A model generated the notes under the pieces. The model was given only the letters and a program-made list of their open reading frames with translations. It had not been told where the DNA came from and made no database searches. Below, in pieces: positions 4,122 to 19,305 of a DNA stretch of 20,723 nucleotides. The first letter of the stretch is position 1; each line of letters begins with the position of its first letter. The stretch lies in the UHGV virus genome UHGV-0278151; one strand, 5' to 3'. The stretch comes from a virus. The position numbers and the translations under genes are program-made.

Positions 4122-4862
4122 TTAACTGGCGGTGACGGTGATTTCTGCAACCGCAGCAAGTTCACCATTACCGGATACGACCGGAATGTTGACCTTGCCT
4201 GCAGCAACACCTTTCACGGTGATGGTCATACCACTGACCGACACGGTGGCTTTTGTTTTATCCGCAGACACCGCACGGAAGCTCTTGTCGGTTGCGCCTT
4301 CCGGCTGGAATGCCACGGTCAGCGTGGTGCTCTGCCCTTTCACCACCGAGGTGCTGGCAGGCGTCACAGTCATGCCGGTTGTCGCCGTCACCGTGCTGCG
4401 ATCTTCTGCCATCGACGGACGGCCCACGTTGGTGACTTTCACCGTGCGGGTGATCACTTCCTTCGCCGTCACCGCCTTACCGATACTGCTGACCCAGCCG
4501 CGGAACACATCGACCGTGCCGTTCGGGAAGCGGATTTTATAGGCTCGGGTATCCCCTTCATTAAACCACGCCAGCAGCGCCTGCTGCCCCTGCTCTCCGG
4601 GCATCCACGCCAGCGTGAAGCTGGTATCTCCGGCAGATTTCTGCCCCTGCCCGGTCGCAGTCCAGTCTGCATCTTCATCATCGAGATAGCTGTCGTCATA
4701 GGACTCAGCGGTCAGTTCGCCGGGCGTCAGGTCTTTAACTTTTGCCAGACGCGACCAGTCAACGTCTGAAAGCGGATTCGCATAAGGGTCACCGCTTCCC
4801 TTATAAACCCACAGGGTGGTCCCGGCACCTTTCACCGGCATTACAGGATTTGGTACAGGCAT
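4122..4862 (-). CDS. V: Major tail tube protein V
   Basis: The translation from the internal ATG at 4860-4862 ([36 protein letters not shown]...) matches lambda gpV, including the C-terminal Ig-like region. The track ORF begins 10 codons further upstream. Confidence 0.93.
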
Positions 4863-16985: not shown

Positions 16986-17242
16986 TTTCCAGGTTTTGCT
17001 TAATATATGAATAATCTCAATGTCATGGTGTTATTTACAACACCAGAATGATGCATCACCGACCCTGCCAGGAAATATAAAATCTCCGCCGAAAATGCAC
17101 CATTCTGCTGCCGTAAAAAAATCAGCACTGCGGCTACACCCGACCCCAAATCATAGCCAGAGAACAGAATGTTTTTAACAATCTACCCCCACGTAATAAA
17201 AAAATACGTCAGTGCCGTCACTATAAGGCGTATTTCAAATGT

Positions 17243-17312
<70 letters not shown>

Positions 17313-17446
17313 TGACGGTTTTATTGCCACATCCGTAACAACAGTCGACAGGAATAATATACATTCAGAATCAGCCGCCTTAGCTAATTGTGCAACCATC
17401 TGCTCTTTGCAAGTGCACTTAACGTCCTGCGCCACTTTTCAGGCAT

Positions 17447-17469
17447 AAAAAAACCCGCTCAGTGGCGGG
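17447..17469 (-). terminator. Strong intrinsic terminator (minus strand)
   Basis: CCCGC-CACTGA-GCGGG hairpin followed by TTTTTTT on the minus strand. It is near-identical to the element at 18171-18195. Confidence 0.7.
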
Positions 17470-17600
17470 ATCTTTTGATAAAAACGACAAAGGCACCATT
17501 AAGGTGCCTTTTACACAGGGGCAGCAGGCTTGTCATCACCTCATCGCTACTCCTGGCTTCCTGTTCGGAAGTCTCACAAGTCCCATCAGGGTACAGCGAC

Positions 17601-17629
17601 AGTATCAGCCAACACACTATGTGTGTCAA
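17601..17629 (-). promoter_or_regulatory. Sigma70-type promoter (TTGACA-17 bp-GATACT) with a 15-bp dyad in the spacer
   Basis: The minus strand reads aTTGACAcacatagtgtgttggctGATACT. The -35 is consensus at 17624-17629, the spacer is 17 bp, and the -10 (17601-17606) matches 4 of 6. The spacer contains the palindrome ACACACATAGTGTGT. Confidence 0.55.
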
Positions 17630-17640
17630 TATAAATTCAT

Positions 17641-17673
17641 ATCGAATTCGATAATCGTTTTCGATTATCGATA
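17641..17673. repeat. Tandem dyad-symmetric sites ATCG-N4-CGAT (x2) plus TATCGATA
   Basis: ATCGAATTCGAT (17641-17652, perfect 12-bp palindrome), ATCGTTTTCGAT (17654-17665) and TATCGATA (17666-17673). They overlap the stop codon of the PemK/MazF-like gene and lie 12 bp upstream of the -35 at 17624-17629. Confidence 0.7.
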
Positions 17674-18066
17674 CAGATAAGCCATCCCTATCCCGTGCAA
17701 TACCGCCCGTTTAATATTCTCAAACTCATCTTCCGCAATCATAGGAACAATATAATTTCGTCCCTCCCAGGTTCTGGTTTTTATGCGATCCAGTCGGCTC
17801 AATGAAACCGTCATCAACATGTCACATTTTACCCAGCAAGTAATATGCTCATTACCAGGTATGGGGTTTTCTGATAACTCATGATGGCAATCTCTGCGAG
17901 GGAGCGGTTCAGTAGTGCTTATTGGTACCACTGTTACCAATTGATTGTTGTGCCTGTTTCTGGACACGACCACCACTGGCCTGACCTTGACTATTTCCGG
18001 AACAACCATTCCCCGAAAATCACACATTAAAACAGAACGAACAGACGGCTGATACTTTAATACCAT
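17665..18066 (-). CDS. PemK/MazF-family-like protein (candidate endoribonuclease toxin), no adjacent antitoxin ORF evident
   Basis: From ATG at 18064-18066 the translation is MVLKYQPSVRSVLMCDFRGMVVPEIVKVRPVVVVSRNRHNNQLVTVVPISTTEPLP...ITCWVKCDMLMTVSLSRL...EDEFENIKRAVLHGIGM. This aligns by motif with Kid/PemK and MazF/EndoA (GDIxxVDF-like strand, VRPxxVV, N..., VxVVPITS, hhxCDQhxTIDxxRL, C-terminal helix). Confidence 0.55.
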   Translation of the reverse strand: MVLKYQPSVRSVLMCDFRGMVVPEIVKVRPVVVVSRNRHNNQLVTVVPISTTEPLPRRDCHHELSENPIPGNEHITCWVKCDMLMTVSLSRLDRIKTRTWEGRNYIVPMIAEDEFENIKRAVLHGIGMAYLYR

Positions 18067-18150
18067 AAATCTCTTTGCCTGATAATGACGACTTGTGAAC
18101 TCCACTACAAACAAAATGATTCTGCTGAACAGGCAGTTTCGCACTATACA

Positions 18151-18156
18151 TTATAA
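18151..18156 (-). promoter_or_regulatory. Consensus -10 hexamer (TATAAT) upstream of PemK/MazF-like gene; no good -35
   Basis: The minus strand reads ggTTATAATgtatagtg, 85 nt upstream of the ATG at 18066 and immediately downstream of the terminator at 18171-18193. Confidence 0.4.
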
Positions 18157-18170
18157 CCTGTTAAGCCAAC

Positions 18171-18193
18171 AAAAAAACCCGCTCGGCGGCGGG
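18171..18193 (-). terminator. Intrinsic terminator (minus strand) between the 229-aa gene and the PemK/MazF-like gene; nin-region tR-like
   Basis: CCCGC-(CGCCGA)-GCGGG hairpin followed by TTTTTTT on the minus strand. It is a direct near-repeat of the 17447-17471 element (23 of 25 bp identical). Confidence 0.65.
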
Positions 18194-18259
18194 ATTTGCT
18201 TACTTTGCCATCGAGTACAAAATCGGCAAAATATCAGATTTGCACGAAATATATGCCTT

Positions 18260-18949
18260 TTAATCTACTTTTGCAACACTTTGCTTTGAAAATGCCGTCT
18301 TTTGTTCTGAACGTGTTCTCATCACAAACAATAAAGCCTCACTATCCAGCCGGTGGAAAATGTGTTTCATTGCAACCCAGTGACCAGTAAATGTTTTGGA
18401 CCAGTTTTTTGTTGTTACTCCCGCCAGTAATGCCAGTTCCTGATATTCATAAGTTTCACGCCCAGCTAGCTCACTCTTCACATCCTGTGCCGCCAGCCAG
18501 ATTAATTTTTTCAGGCGCTCCCGTGTTTTCTCCGCAATTTTTCTGGTACCAGATTGCGCGTTAAATTCATTCCACGCCCACTGTGTTATCGCAATCTGGT
18601 GTTCCCAGCAAATGCTGCCGCTGTAACACCACAGCAACCAGGCTTTATAGTGTTCTTCAAGAGACAGAACCGCCCGTCGCCATGATGATGTCGAAAACTC
18701 AACCTGACTTACCAGAGGAATTGACGTCCTCTTTGCCAGCGATTGTTTCCCCGGGATTGGTGGATTATCCCGCGTTATCATTTTTCCGGTCACTTCATCG
18801 CGGTACCGGATTTTTTTACGCCTGTAACGCCCTGTATCAAACATGGCATTCTCCTGCCAGGCTTCAAGCTGACCTTTTGTTGCCCCACTCAAATCGGCGG
18901 TGGCAATAATGAGCTGCTCACGAACAAACTGTAAATACTGGTTATTCAT
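18260..18949 (-). CDS. nin-region protein immediately downstream of rusA; candidate late-gene antiterminator Q (assignment positional, family not verified)
   Basis: 229 aa from ATG at 18947-18949, which overlaps the rusA stop (ATGA). It occupies the last position of the early-right/nin block before the late control region. I could not recall a confident sequence match to lambda Q or any other Q family. Confidence 0.4.
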   Translation of the reverse strand: MNNQYLQFVREQLIIATADLSGATKGQLEAWQENAMFDTGRYRRKKIRYRDEVTGKMITRDNPPIPGKQSLAKRTSIPLVSQVEFSTSSWRRAVLSLEEHYKAWLLWCYSGSICWEHQIAITQWAWNEFNAQSGTRKIAEKTRERLKKLIWLAAQDVKSELAGRETYEYQELALLAGVTTKNWSKTFTGHWVAMKHIFHRLDSEALLFVMRTRSEQKTAFSKQSVAKVD

Positions 18950-19305
18950 GCGCACTCCAGCCCTGTGATTTTTATCCCCAACCGACCACCAGGAACGACC
19001 TGACCGCGCACAATATTGATTTCATCAAACTGCTCGTCGTCGATAAGCAGTCCCGCATACGTCAGCGCATCCAGCGGTGCTTTCAGAATATTGTCCAGGT
19101 CACGACGGCGCTTATCCGGCGGCTCTGCAATGATCTTTATCGCCAGCCTTCCGGACAGGTTTAATTTCAGCCGCTGCTGGCGAACAATAAGCGCCACATC
19201 ACGGCGATAACGCTCACCGGCTTTTGATACAAAATATGTGCTGCCACGACGACGCCAGTAGGTGTTCACCGTCGGCGGGTAAGGCAAAACAAACTCTATA
19301 CGCAT
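18946..19305 (-). CDS. rusA: Holliday junction resolvase RusA
   Basis: 119 aa, MRIEFVLPYPPTVNTYWRRRGSTYFVSKAGERYRRDVA...PDKRRRDLDNILKAPLDALTYAGLLIDDEQ.... It has the RusA signature (PPSVN/TY...RRDLDN...DD) and a GAGG Shine-Dalgarno before the ATG at 19303-19305. Confidence 0.85.
   Translation of the reverse strand: MRIEFVLPYPPTVNTYWRRRGSTYFVSKAGERYRRDVALIVRQQRLKLNLSGRLAIKIIAEPPDKRRRDLDNILKAPLDALTYAGLLIDDEQFDEINIVRGQVVPGGRLGIKITGLECA

Follow-up and report, generated by a model that had tools for sequence, protein, structure and literature searches.

A PemK/MazF-fold gene and a conserved structured small RNA, a candidate RNA antitoxin, at the late terminator of lambdoid prophages

The cassette and the resident Q module

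The window, i.e. the whole stretch of 20,723 nucleotides of virus genome UHGV-0278151 that was analysed, contains the gene of a late antiterminator Q, a gene for a PemK/MazF-like protein and a gene for a structured small RNA, all three on the minus strand (Table 1). The last two lie between the copies of a 25-nt direct repeat, which are identical at 23 of their 25 positions and which both score as minus-strand intrinsic terminators.

Table 1. Features of the PemK-RNA cassette and of the adjoining Q module, by position in the window
Feature	Position	Strand	Evidence or remark
Late antiterminator Q gene; sets phage transcription direction	18260..18955	minus	Pfam Phage_antiter_Q PF06323, E=1.2e-93; PGAP agrees
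pR'-like late promoter of the resident Q module, TTGCAA-17-TATATT	18248..18276	minus	promoter scan, 9/12
Short pR'-to-tR' leader transcript, ~70 nt	18173..18244	minus	weak Rfam likeness; kept in cassette-less phages
Terminator copy 1 (resident tR'), upstream cassette boundary	18171..18195	minus	intrinsic-terminator score; direct repeat
Consensus -10 hexamer TATAAT upstream of the toxin gene, no recognisable -35	18150..18155	minus	sequence reading
133-aa ORF, PemK/MazF-fold endoribonuclease gene, 'YifN-like' subfamily	18066-17665	minus	Pfam PF02452, AlphaFold2, Foldseek
Perfect 10-bp hairpin over the stop codon	17648..17671 (arms 17648-17657 / 17662-17671)	minus	inverted-repeat search
Sigma-70 promoter of the small RNA, TTGACA-17-GATACT	17601..17629	minus	10/12, best of promoter scan
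Conserved structured small RNA, ~110 nt, candidate RNA antitoxin	17480..17594	minus	covariance model, covariation, folding
RNA helix P1	17591-17589 / 17584-17582	minus	
RNA single-stranded CUUGUGAGAC	17580-17571	minus	
RNA helix P2	17571-17567 / 17561-17557	minus	
RNA helix P3	17555-17546 / 17525-17516	minus	
RNA helix P3a, closes octaloop GAUGACAA at 17537-17530	17540-17538 / 17529-17527	minus	
RNA terminator	17511-17489	minus	
RNA tail UUUGUCGUUUUU	17491-17480	minus	
Terminator copy 2, downstream cassette boundary	17447..17471	minus	intrinsic-terminator score; direct repeat

Region 18169-18260 was found at 80-90% identity in most of the 921 E. coli genomes that matched the query, and these are without the cassette. 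The leader transcript that it encodes showed weak, sub-threshold likeness to the Rfam prophage leader sRNAs isrJ (21.3 bits) and isrK (19.5 bits) and is conserved in the cassette-less phages 606R7 and PPompW. Homology with cassette-less phages of the same Q type ends right past the T-run of terminator copy 1. From terminator copy 2 onward the sequence is shared by 1,878 E. coli genomes, where it directly follows another type of Q gene. Empty-site E. coli prophage genomes possess a single terminator, and a synthetic junction consisting of Q, pR', one terminator and the downstream flank aligned in one piece to strains C5, STEC316 and 06-00048. In lambdoid prophages the cassette is a present/absent indel whose site coincides with the late terminator tR' and falls exactly between the terminator repeats. 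Prophages that carry it include those in Shiga-toxin-producing E. coli strains.

Cassettes or the RNA occur in four late-regulator contexts (PF06323, PF03589, PF06530 and Mu-like Mor). In the Enterobacter and Klebsiella cassettes the homology begins 23 nt before the ATG and the region upstream of the toxin gene is not conserved; Enterobacter-type cassettes have a similar CCCGCC...GCGGG-T terminator after the RNA. The TATAAT at 18155-18150 was not among the promoters reported by the promoter scan, and the sequence of the stop-codon hairpin was not conserved in other genera. With its own promoter and terminators, an empty site in relatives and several late-regulator contexts, the cassette is a phage moron. 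This moron architecture had been proposed in an earlier note on this DNA, made from the sequence alone, together with the terminator copies and the TATAAT upstream of the toxin gene, all of which were found; so was the presence or absence exactly between the repeats, which the note had suggested looking for in related prophages. A correction is needed at the upstream end, where terminator copy 1 and the promoter at 18276-18248 are elements of the resident Q late unit and lie outside the cassette.

The PemK/MazF-like protein and the search for a protein antitoxin

The sole Pfam match of the 133-aa protein was PemK_toxin (PF02452; 52.7 bits against a cut-off of 23.1, E=5.6e-14), and no ToxN/AbiQ, CptN or TenpN family was matched. 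An ATG opens this ORF; PGAP instead chose a start that yields 114 aa. The 133-aa start is favoured because homologues of 127-143 aa span 96-100% of the query. The AlphaFold2 model (pLDDT 93.2, pTM 0.86) had MazF structures of S. aureus, B. subtilis, M. tuberculosis and E. coli as its top Foldseek matches in the PDB (TM 0.67-0.82), and all 50 PDB matches shown were MazF-family toxins (MazF, YdcE, MoxT, mRNA interferase) with E down to 2e-7. Sequence identity to solved MazF proteins is 14-19%; a search of the PDB by sequence alone gave no match, so that the fold search was needed. The score with the NCBIfam MazF model was far under the cut-off and PADLOC gave no defence-system match at the cassette. 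PHROGs placed the protein near a 'MazF-like growth inhibitor' family.

The catalytic residues of MazF are R29 and T52. In an hhalign alignment E24, R29 and S50 of the 133-aa protein coincide with MazF E24, R29 and T52, and the three are invariant across 44 homologues; the CD...RLD motif is invariant or nearly so. According to the model, the protein is a true member of the PemK/MazF fold (SH3-like barrel) in which the catalytic Arg and Thr/Ser of MazF are conserved. The PemK/MazF identity advanced in the earlier note is upheld by the Pfam profile and by the model with its Foldseek matches. It had been considered there that the protein might prove to be a Q-family antiterminator. It is not: PemK_toxin is its only match and Q is the neighbouring gene at 18955-18260. 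At least 560 relatives of the PemK gene were present in one metagenome scan. Many homologues were labelled by JGI after E. coli YifN (COG 'YifN, PemK superfamily') and make up a subfamily of solitary PemK-like proteins; on the function of YifN no literature was found.

MazF and PemK are textbook type II toxins, a class that is defined by its protein antitoxin. No MazE/PemI-like ORF was found in the window or next to the 133-aa gene, where 111 nt separates tR' from the ATG, as the earlier note had stated for the upstream side. Seven small ORFs around the cassette, on both strands, had no significant Pfam domain, the sole match being a sub-threshold DUF7016 (E=0.063). Across 78 PemK loci no conserved upstream ORF family emerged, and the largest cluster of upstream ORFs had 6 members. 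The PemK gene is likewise without a protein partner in genomes of Enterobacter, Klebsiella, Xenorhabdus, Pseudomonas, Geobacter, Alcanivorax and Paragemmobacter. A protein antitoxin gene conserved beside this PemK subfamily is absent. In one clade (6/78 loci) an ORF of 184-190 aa with a weak RHH-like N-terminus abuts PemK, and this might be a protein antitoxin within that clade. HTH or weak RHH-like genes adjoin PemK in some lineages and are lineage-specific.

The small RNA and its linkage to PemK

Downstream of the toxin gene the earlier note had noticed a second promoter and a short terminated transcript. Promoter (17629-17601) and terminator (17511-17489) were both recovered; what they delimit is a predicted gene for a structured RNA of about 110 nt. 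Its TTGAC and -10 elements are conserved in E. coli, Enterobacter, Klebsiella and Xenorhabdus, and a promoter match of at least 9/12 at a fixed distance was obtained for 48% of 64 distinct RNA loci versus 0.6% of controls. The RNA region is unlikely to be coding because 1-nt indels occur in it among genera; ORFs inside the small RNA were rejected as coding genes, being broken by these indels in other genera.

A covariance model, seeded with nine well-aligned sequences, matched the window at 17594-17506 with 94.3 bits (E=5.6e-19), and the minimum free energy of the RNA is -43.9 kcal/mol (z=-4.3). Double changes were seen at 20/21 base pairs. In the alignment, which was fitted to the covariance model's own structure and so favours that structure, 96.3% of cells were paired compared with 71.9% after shuffling, and the covariation score was 0.636 against 0.196 for shuffled alignments and at most 0.115 when the partners were slid. 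When 62 distinct cores were folded without constraints or an alignment, 46 of them kept the octaloop free of pairing above a stem of 9 or more pairs, although P3 has 54 different sequences. RNAalifold, given a plain MAFFT alignment, predicted P2, P3a and the terminator and missed P3 through a misplaced gap. The invariant single-stranded motifs are CUUGYGAGAC and the ACA-containing octaloop GAUGACAA; variants of the loop and of J1/2 are GACGACAA with GAGCC, and GAUUACAA. These comparisons indicate that the small RNA is conserved in its sequence and, via compensatory changes, in its predicted secondary structure, and that it is better conserved than the ORF.

Two further pairings were considered. 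A closing helix or K-turn between CUUGU (J1/2) and ACAAG was rejected: single changes at loci L066, L090 and L099 are uncompensated, distant clades have CAUUC or CGAUU for CUUGU, and the G of ACAAG pairs in P3a instead. It is possible that GACAA of the octaloop pairs with UUGUC of the conserved 3' tail. Locus L073 has GAUAACAA together with a UUUGUUUU tail and Geobacter a U.G pair there; the pairing is broken in L131, and just about 12 variant loops were available for this comparison.

Rfam 15 gave no match at E<=1 to the RNA core from the window and six diverse loci; at E<=10 a scan of 201 nt returned sub-threshold, mostly terminator-driven matches only. The Rfam 'pemK RNA motif' is similar in being an RNA family whose name comes from an association with pemK genes. 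It is located upstream of pemK genes in Firmicutes, and it gave no match to the new RNA at E<=10 in the 201-nt scan or in the six diverse loci. With its strong covariation, defined promoter and invariant loops, and with no counterpart in Rfam, the small RNA constitutes a new RNA family.

Across four enterobacterial genera, in which the proteins are 71-79% identical to that of the window, the RNA is nearly invariant, and its motifs can also be recognized in Pseudomonas, Geobacter and Paragemmobacter. Covariance model R1 matched 82/89 sources. The RNA was present at 74 of 80 metagenomic PemK loci, and four of the six lacking ones end at a contig edge; 74 of the 76 informative loci carry it next to PemK, with proteins 41-100% identical to the window protein. 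With the filters off, the covariance model also found the RNA at L023. The label 'orphan', which the gene had been given in the earlier note, does not survive this result. Almost always the RNA lies about 50 nt downstream of PemK on the same strand. At three loci (L089, L135 and L022) it is inverted, and because of these opposite-strand copies it is regarded as a separate gene and not as a 3' UTR. The pair was found in phage and in non-phage contexts, the latter comprising chromosomes of Pseudomonas, Geobacter and Paragemmobacter, and in dozens of environmental contigs; the RNA is co-inherited with the PemK subfamily over Gamma-, Alpha- and Deltaproteobacteria and many metagenomes. The Geobacter copy has a methyltransferase and a ResIII helicase as neighbours, a setting similar to a defence island.

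Loss of the two partners is unequal. PemK was missing from 13 of 32 RNA loci, three of which are precise PemK deletions that keep the RNA, and in E. coli the RNA occurs in 37 genomes and the full cassette in 24. PemK without the RNA was seen at 2/76 loci at most. Such an asymmetry would be the pattern expected of a toxin-antitoxin pair. Eight viral contigs show the RNA, unaccompanied by PemK, about 100 nt past a lambda-type Q gene; its role there could be that of a late-promoter leader or an independent one.

A putative RNA antitoxin and the alternatives

The earlier note had left three readings side by side, i.e. a defence or abortive-infection effector, a toxin neutralized by the downstream RNA, and a domesticated regulator. 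The comparative evidence singles out the second. The locus is probably (with a probability of roughly 0.55) a mobile two-gene module of a MazF/PemK-fold RNase and a downstream small RNA with its own promoter and terminator, which would neutralize the RNase by direct binding in a type III-like manner without repeats. Direct binding is suggested by the co-conservation of RNA and toxin and by the lack of an antisense signal. The small RNA, as the antitoxin, would be kept in excess by its strong promoter and would bind the PemK dimer through CUUGYGAGAC and the octaloop, either as a pseudo-substrate or as a true substrate that remains attached after its cleavage. It would thereby fill the RNA groove of PemK that in type II systems is occupied by MazE. 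An arrest of RNA synthesis, or late readthrough of tR' under Q antitermination that raises the level of toxin mRNA, could be the trigger; the freed RNase would then cut cellular or phage RNA, with defence by abortive infection, an addiction to the element or a late shut-off of the host as possible outcomes.

A different proposal builds on the same evidence of co-conservation and covariation; in it the protein is not chiefly a toxin but a dedicated binding or processing factor for the RNA, or the RNA is its guide or cofactor, the two forming a ribonucleoprotein (e.g. a phage-defence sensor/effector or a regulator) and the RNA being no inhibitor. Adjacency alone cannot separate an antitoxin from a dedicated substrate or a cofactor RNA. 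The invariant single-stranded motifs resemble a protein recognition site, the RNA-only loci imply that the RNA can persist alone, and the surroundings of the Geobacter copy are defence-island-like. However, neither the Arg nor the Ser that serve catalysis in MazF toxins varies among the homologues, which is what a general RNase should show, and the RNA is kept after deletion of PemK and the reverse almost never occurs, which fits an antidote better than a cofactor. This proposal is considered unlikely. The invariance or near-invariance of the positions equivalent to E24, R29 and T52 (here S50) and of the CD...RLD motif, as well as the position near a growth-inhibitor family in PHROGs, speak against the view that the MazF-fold protein is domesticated or inactive, non-toxic and in a role other than catalysis. 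That the protein has 14-19% identity to solved MazF proteins and was missed by the sequence-only PDB search, the NCBIfam MazF model and PADLOC would agree with such a role, which is nevertheless held to be improbable.

It is very improbable that the RNA acts in a type I-like manner, base-pairing with the PemK mRNA and blocking its translation or stability. An RNA gene with a strong promoter does adjoin the toxin gene, and 20 nt of the RNA (17557-17576) are 75% complementary to 18117-18136 in the 5' UTR. RNA and gene, however, are on the same strand without an antisense signal, and the putative pairing partner in the 5' UTR differs between cassettes, whose homology starts 23 nt before the ATG. 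Duplexes of each RNA with its cognate initiation region were no better than shuffled ones (mean z 0.007, 3/62 below -2; a crude measure, as the duplex tool permits long loops), and the RNA motifs are invariant although the mRNA sequences diverge. Moreover, the predicted product is a 133-aa soluble RNase fold, as judged from the AlphaFold2 model, and not the small hydrophobic protein of type I systems. A perfect 10-nt complement between 17601-17610 and 18047-18056 was dismissed, since about 0.5 such pairs are expected by chance per 1 kb and it lies upstream of the RNA start. Strongly disfavoured is the idea of a true orphan late toxin, made only after Q antitermination in a doomed cell and therefore needing no antidote, beside an unrelated leader or terminator module. 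It could account for the gene directly following pR'-tR', for a -10 hexamer without a -35 upstream of it, and for the RNA right after Q without PemK in some phages. It is contradicted by the conservation of the pair in non-phage chromosomes and dozens of environmental contigs; hitch-hiking in lambdoid late regions cannot explain a linkage that extends down to about 41% protein identity with compensatory changes in the stems.

Neutralization by the small RNA may apply to the whole PemK subfamily, whose members are automatically annotated as 'type II toxins'. These would represent a new RNA-antitoxin class, widespread in Proteobacteria and their phages, in which a structured single-copy small RNA, transcribed independently and bearing the ACA-containing octaloop at the end of a long covarying stem, would neutralize the toxin directly and RNA-only phages would use it as an anti-defence decoy. 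This wider proposal is tentative and is given slightly less than even odds. Were it true, a structured RNA would have replaced the protein antidote in an entire subfamily, blurring the boundary between types II and III, and an RNA antidote would account for many 'orphan toxin' annotations. Located at the Q-controlled late switch of E. coli prophages, the module could affect superinfection immunity, prophage induction or host shut-off. In the literature on YifN, on orphan prophage MazF, on PemK with an RNA antitoxin and on PemK beside Q, the coverage of which was incomplete, the pair was not described; an earlier description is possible.

With type II MazEF and PemIK (Kid-Kis) the cassette shares the toxin fold, the Pfam family and the alignment of the E24 position and the catalytic Arg and Thr/Ser with E. 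coli MazF. It differs in that no MazE/PemI-type antitoxin gene (AbrB/SpoVT or RHH) is adjacent and the conserved partner is the downstream RNA gene. The fold of ToxN resembles that of Kid/MazF, and some phages carry antitoxin-like RNAs. The likeness to type III systems (ToxIN, CptIN, TenpIN) lies in the proposed logic, a structured RNA in excess that would directly bind an endoribonuclease, and in the carriage by mobile elements and phages. In known type III systems the antitoxin consists of tandem repeats that precede the toxin gene. Here, in contrast, the Pfam family of the toxin is PemK, not ToxN/AbiQ, and the RNA is a single copy of about 110 nt with its own promoter, downstream of the gene, instead of an upstream, terminator-separated repeat array. 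Tandem Repeats Finder detected no tandem repeats over 17000-18400, and a repeat search likewise gave no ToxI-like array. The lambdoid pR'-tR' leader sRNAs (lambda 6S RNA, IsrK, StxS) are similar in that between Q and the lysis genes a strong promoter is followed by a short structured transcript and its terminator, and in the eight viral contigs the new RNA occupies exactly the leader position, directly after Q. The window, however, has a separate Q-cognate leader at 18244-18173, and the new RNA tracks PemK rather than one Q type and is also found outside phages.

The putative toxin gene and its product

The 133-aa reading frame that the earlier note had likened to PemK/MazF toxins was found on the minus strand, with the TATAAT hexamer upstream of it. 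Homologues of 127-143 aa align along the entire ORF, which makes 133 aa the correct length and the PGAP start (114 aa) too short. The AlphaFold2 model of the protein (pLDDT 93.2, pTM 0.86) matched solved MazF structures with TM values of 0.67-0.82 at an identity of only 14-19%. Profile-based alignment with MazF of E. coli matched E24, R29 and S50 with E24, R29 and T52, respectively, and all three residues were unchanged across 44 homologues. Taken together, this indicates a genuine MazF-fold protein with intact catalytic residues. PADLOC gave no match for it.

Features of the late region and the cassette in the window
Feature	Position	Strand	Remarks
DUF968 gene	20364-19318	minus	
RusA	19305-18946	minus	
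Q antiterminator	18955-18260	minus	Pfam PF06323
pR'-like promoter	18276-18248	minus	just 3' of Q
Intrinsic terminator	18193-18178	minus	3' of pR'-like promoter
Direct repeat, terminator copy 1	18171-18195		25 nt, 23/25 identical to copy 2
TATAAT hexamer	18155-18150		upstream of toxin gene
PemK/MazF-like ORF	18066-17665	minus	133 aa; Pfam PemK_toxin, 52.7 bits
Perfect 10-bp hairpin			over toxin-gene stop codon; found by repeat search
Second promoter	17629-17601		TTGACA-17-GATACT
Small RNA gene	~17594-17480	minus	
Terminator of the RNA	17511-17489		
Direct repeat, terminator copy 2	17447-17471		25 nt
tRNA-Gly(UCC) fragment	17254-17311	minus	first 7 nt missing
TerB-family gene	16577-16152	minus	Pfam TerB, E=1.7e-6

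Seven small ORFs around the toxin gene had no significant Pfam match, the only match being DUF7016 at a sub-threshold E=0.063. Of the earlier description of an orphan toxin, the MazF fold and the lack of a protein antidote stand, but the word orphan does not, since a conserved RNA partner adjoins the gene. This partner has so far escaped annotation: PGAP calls either nothing or a spurious hypothetical protein there, and no description of the pair was met in the searchable literature, the coverage of which is incomplete.

A structured RNA downstream of the toxin gene

DNA similarity between cassettes extends ~180 nt past the stop codon. This stretch is conserved far better than the ORF and contains 1-nt indels, which rule out a coding origin. 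The second promoter noticed earlier, which is near-consensus, and the terminator after it were both present. The conserved block begins 6-7 nt past the -10 hexamer of this promoter and stops at the terminator; being so bounded, it represents a small RNA gene. Its folding energy was -43.9 kcal/mol (z=-4.3). In Pseudomonas, Geobacter and Paragemmobacter the same motifs were recognisable by eye 3' of the gene. Of 64 distinct RNA loci, 48% had a sigma-70 promoter match (9/12 or better) at a fixed distance, vs 0.6% of control windows. Rfam 15, its 'pemK RNA motif' included, yielded no match to the RNA.

The consensus structure starts with a 3-bp hairpin (P1), followed by the invariant single strand (G/A)CUUGYGAGAC, a variable hairpin (P2) and a 10-bp stem (P3) with a 3-bp extension (P3a) that presents the octaloop GAUGACAA. 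After P3 come GUGAA, the terminator hairpin and an unusual conserved tail, UUUGUC(R)UUU. The octaloop was found in 57 of 69 distinct sequences, and its ACAA is essentially invariant (68/69). In a model-fitted alignment, which leans towards the model, 96.3% of cells were paired vs 71.9% after shuffling, compensatory double changes occurred in 20 of 21 pairs, and the covariation score was 0.636 (shuffled, 0.196; slid partners, at most 0.115). Because of this leaning each distinct core was also folded separately. In the unconstrained minimum-energy fold of 46 of 62 distinct cores the octaloop was single-stranded and its stem had nine or more pairs; among the cores the P3 strand had 54 different sequences.

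The U-tract after the terminator hairpin (17480-17491) is broken by the conserved GUC of UUUGUCRUUU, at the same position in 53/64 distinct loci. The GUC region of the tail is complementary to GACAA of the octaloop; in two of three loop-variant types the tail had changed to match, whereas in the third it had not. A loop-tail pseudoknot is possible on these sequences.

Linkage of toxin gene and RNA

Scanning of metagenome contigs by protein alignment gave 80 loci, among the matches listed, whose proteins were 41-100% identical to the query. A covariance model of the RNA, seeded with nine sequences, detected it in 82 of 89 sources. The RNA lay downstream on the same strand in 72 of the 80 loci (median ~48 nt past the stop codon), upstream on the opposite strand in one and downstream on the opposite strand in another. 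These inverted copies show that the RNA has a gene of its own rather than being part of a 3' UTR, with which the fixed-distance promoter matches agree. It was not found in six loci, in four of which the contig ended at the gene or no more than ~20 nt past it, leaving it present in 74 of 76 informative loci. The divergent Paragemmobacter RNA was recovered with filters off (E=3e-5). The RNA was clearly missing at one locus only (L133), and a second (L116) was doubtful. The linkage is tight and ancient.

A search of viral contigs and one genome collection with a 21-nt core motif retrieved 32 loci, 19 with PemK directly upstream of the RNA and 13 without it. Three of the latter were precise deletions of the PemK ORF (L026, L034, L044; also seen in ~9 E. 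coli genomes, query positions 12-155), in which the cassette 5' UTR (GGTTATAATG...AGAATCAT) is joined to ...AGTGTTGACTGATACT in the -10 region of an intact RNA. In eight others, on IMG/VR contigs and one MAG contig (L037, L030, L036, L024, L029, L033, L042 and L055), the RNA followed a 267-aa lambda-type Q gene by ~100 nt and retained its -10 hexamer, the TTGACA -35 being replaced. Of the remaining two, one had a different upstream sequence and one was truncated. As the RNA was also present in 37 E. coli genomes vs 24 with the full cassette, it often outlives the protein, which is almost never seen without it. An antidote and its poison would be expected to show just this asymmetry.

On the comparative evidence we infer that the RNA is the antitoxin of PemK. 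Antisense action on the toxin mRNA is unlikely: RNA and toxin gene share a strand, conservation between cassettes does not extend to the 5' UTR, and RNA-mRNA duplex energies (mean z 0.007) were no better than those of shuffled sequences. A protein-binding surface is a better explanation of the invariant single-stranded motifs, of which one contains ACA. ACA is the cleavage site of E. coli MazF. The RNA could be a pseudo-substrate in the groove that MazE fills in type II complexes, or a substrate cleaved and retained there. Binding of an RNA to the toxin would recall type III systems; the known families, however, have tandem repeats and a ToxN-family toxin, whereas this module has neither, and here the RNA is downstream. 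Since the RNA promoter is strong and that of the toxin weak, consisting of no more than a -10 hexamer, the RNA would be in excess in the prophage. Speculatively, Q-modified polymerase reading through the resident late terminator tR' would increase toxin mRNA at a late stage of the lytic cycle, or a superinfecting phage that blocks host transcription would deplete the RNA; either route might free the RNase.

A true orphan late toxin beside an unrelated RNA would fit the phage setting, but is contradicted by the gene-RNA pairs at non-phage loci. A ribonucleoprotein in which the RNA serves PemK as substrate or cofactor, rather than inhibiting it, would also use a protein-binding surface, and we regard it as unlikely, with a chance of roughly one in five. 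In one clade (L062, L063, L066, L067, L068, L082) an upstream ORF of 162-190 aa ends at most ~35 nt from the PemK start. Its N-terminus looks RHH-like, with a weak, below-threshold match to PSK_trans_fac (E=0.011). Its product may serve as a further regulator or as an antitoxin, and the RNA is present there as well. Where the RNA directly follows Q, it could have a second role as late-promoter leader, or may be an antitoxin-only decoy against PemK-based defence.

The cassette in the late region

The window is a piece of an E. coli lambdoid prophage, 100% identical to E. coli EC21Z-048 and GPEC79-13-647 and 99.9% to SE11 in genome comparison. Phage transcription runs along the minus strand through DUF968, RusA, Q, the cassette region and the TerB-family gene to the holins and lysis genes. 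The ~70-nt transcript from pR' to the terminator (18173-18244, minus) scored 21.3 bits for isrJ and 19.5 bits for isrK in Rfam, both sub-threshold, which suggests that the resident leader is of the same class as terminated late-leader sRNAs such as Salmonella Gifsy isrJ/isrK. The pR'-terminator unit was common, at 80-90% identity, to most of 921 query-matching E. coli genomes, those without the cassette. Phages 606R7 and PPompW carry the same unit with tRNA genes directly after it.

The near-identical terminators were as the earlier note had them, and the comparison it proposed was borne out. A synthetic junction, in which the 3' end of Q, pR' and a single terminator are joined to what follows terminator copy 2, aligned unbroken to the E. 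coli genomes C5, STEC316 and 06-00048 (88-89% identity). In a three-way alignment, carriers have terminator, 699 nt, terminator, and these three genomes one terminator. The unit that is present or absent between the repeats is therefore exactly the 724 bp made up of the cassette and one terminator copy. Of 5,426 complete E. coli genomes 24 carried it, among them several Shiga-toxin-producing strains.

Homologues in Enterobacter, Klebsiella and Xenorhabdus (71-79% identity to the window protein) are also solitary genes and sit between a late regulator and lysis genes, the regulators being of unrelated types (lambda-Q-like PF03589, PF06530 and a Mu-like Mor/Gp27 region). More remote homologues, from Pseudomonas, Geobacter, Alcanivorax and Paragemmobacter, stand alone in the chromosome between long intergenic flanks. 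Outside phages, the module frequently has tRNA genes or the 3' ends of tRNAs as neighbours, at distances of up to a few hundred nt (L016 ~4690-4720; L060 2345-2495; L062, 3' of the RNA), a proximity that hints at a location at the edges of integrative elements.

The TerB-family gene and a neighbouring DUF3927 gene (10604-11178 in L001), between cassette and holins, are further accessory genes of the late region. The tRNA-Gly(UCC) fragment matched the Rfam tRNA model with 48.5 bits (model positions 8-63), and ARAGORN detected no tRNA at this position. Related prophages (L003, L004, L008) have intact tRNA-Thr and tRNA-Gly genes at the matching site, which places a mosaic recombination junction inside the tRNA gene, ~135 nt downstream of the cassette.
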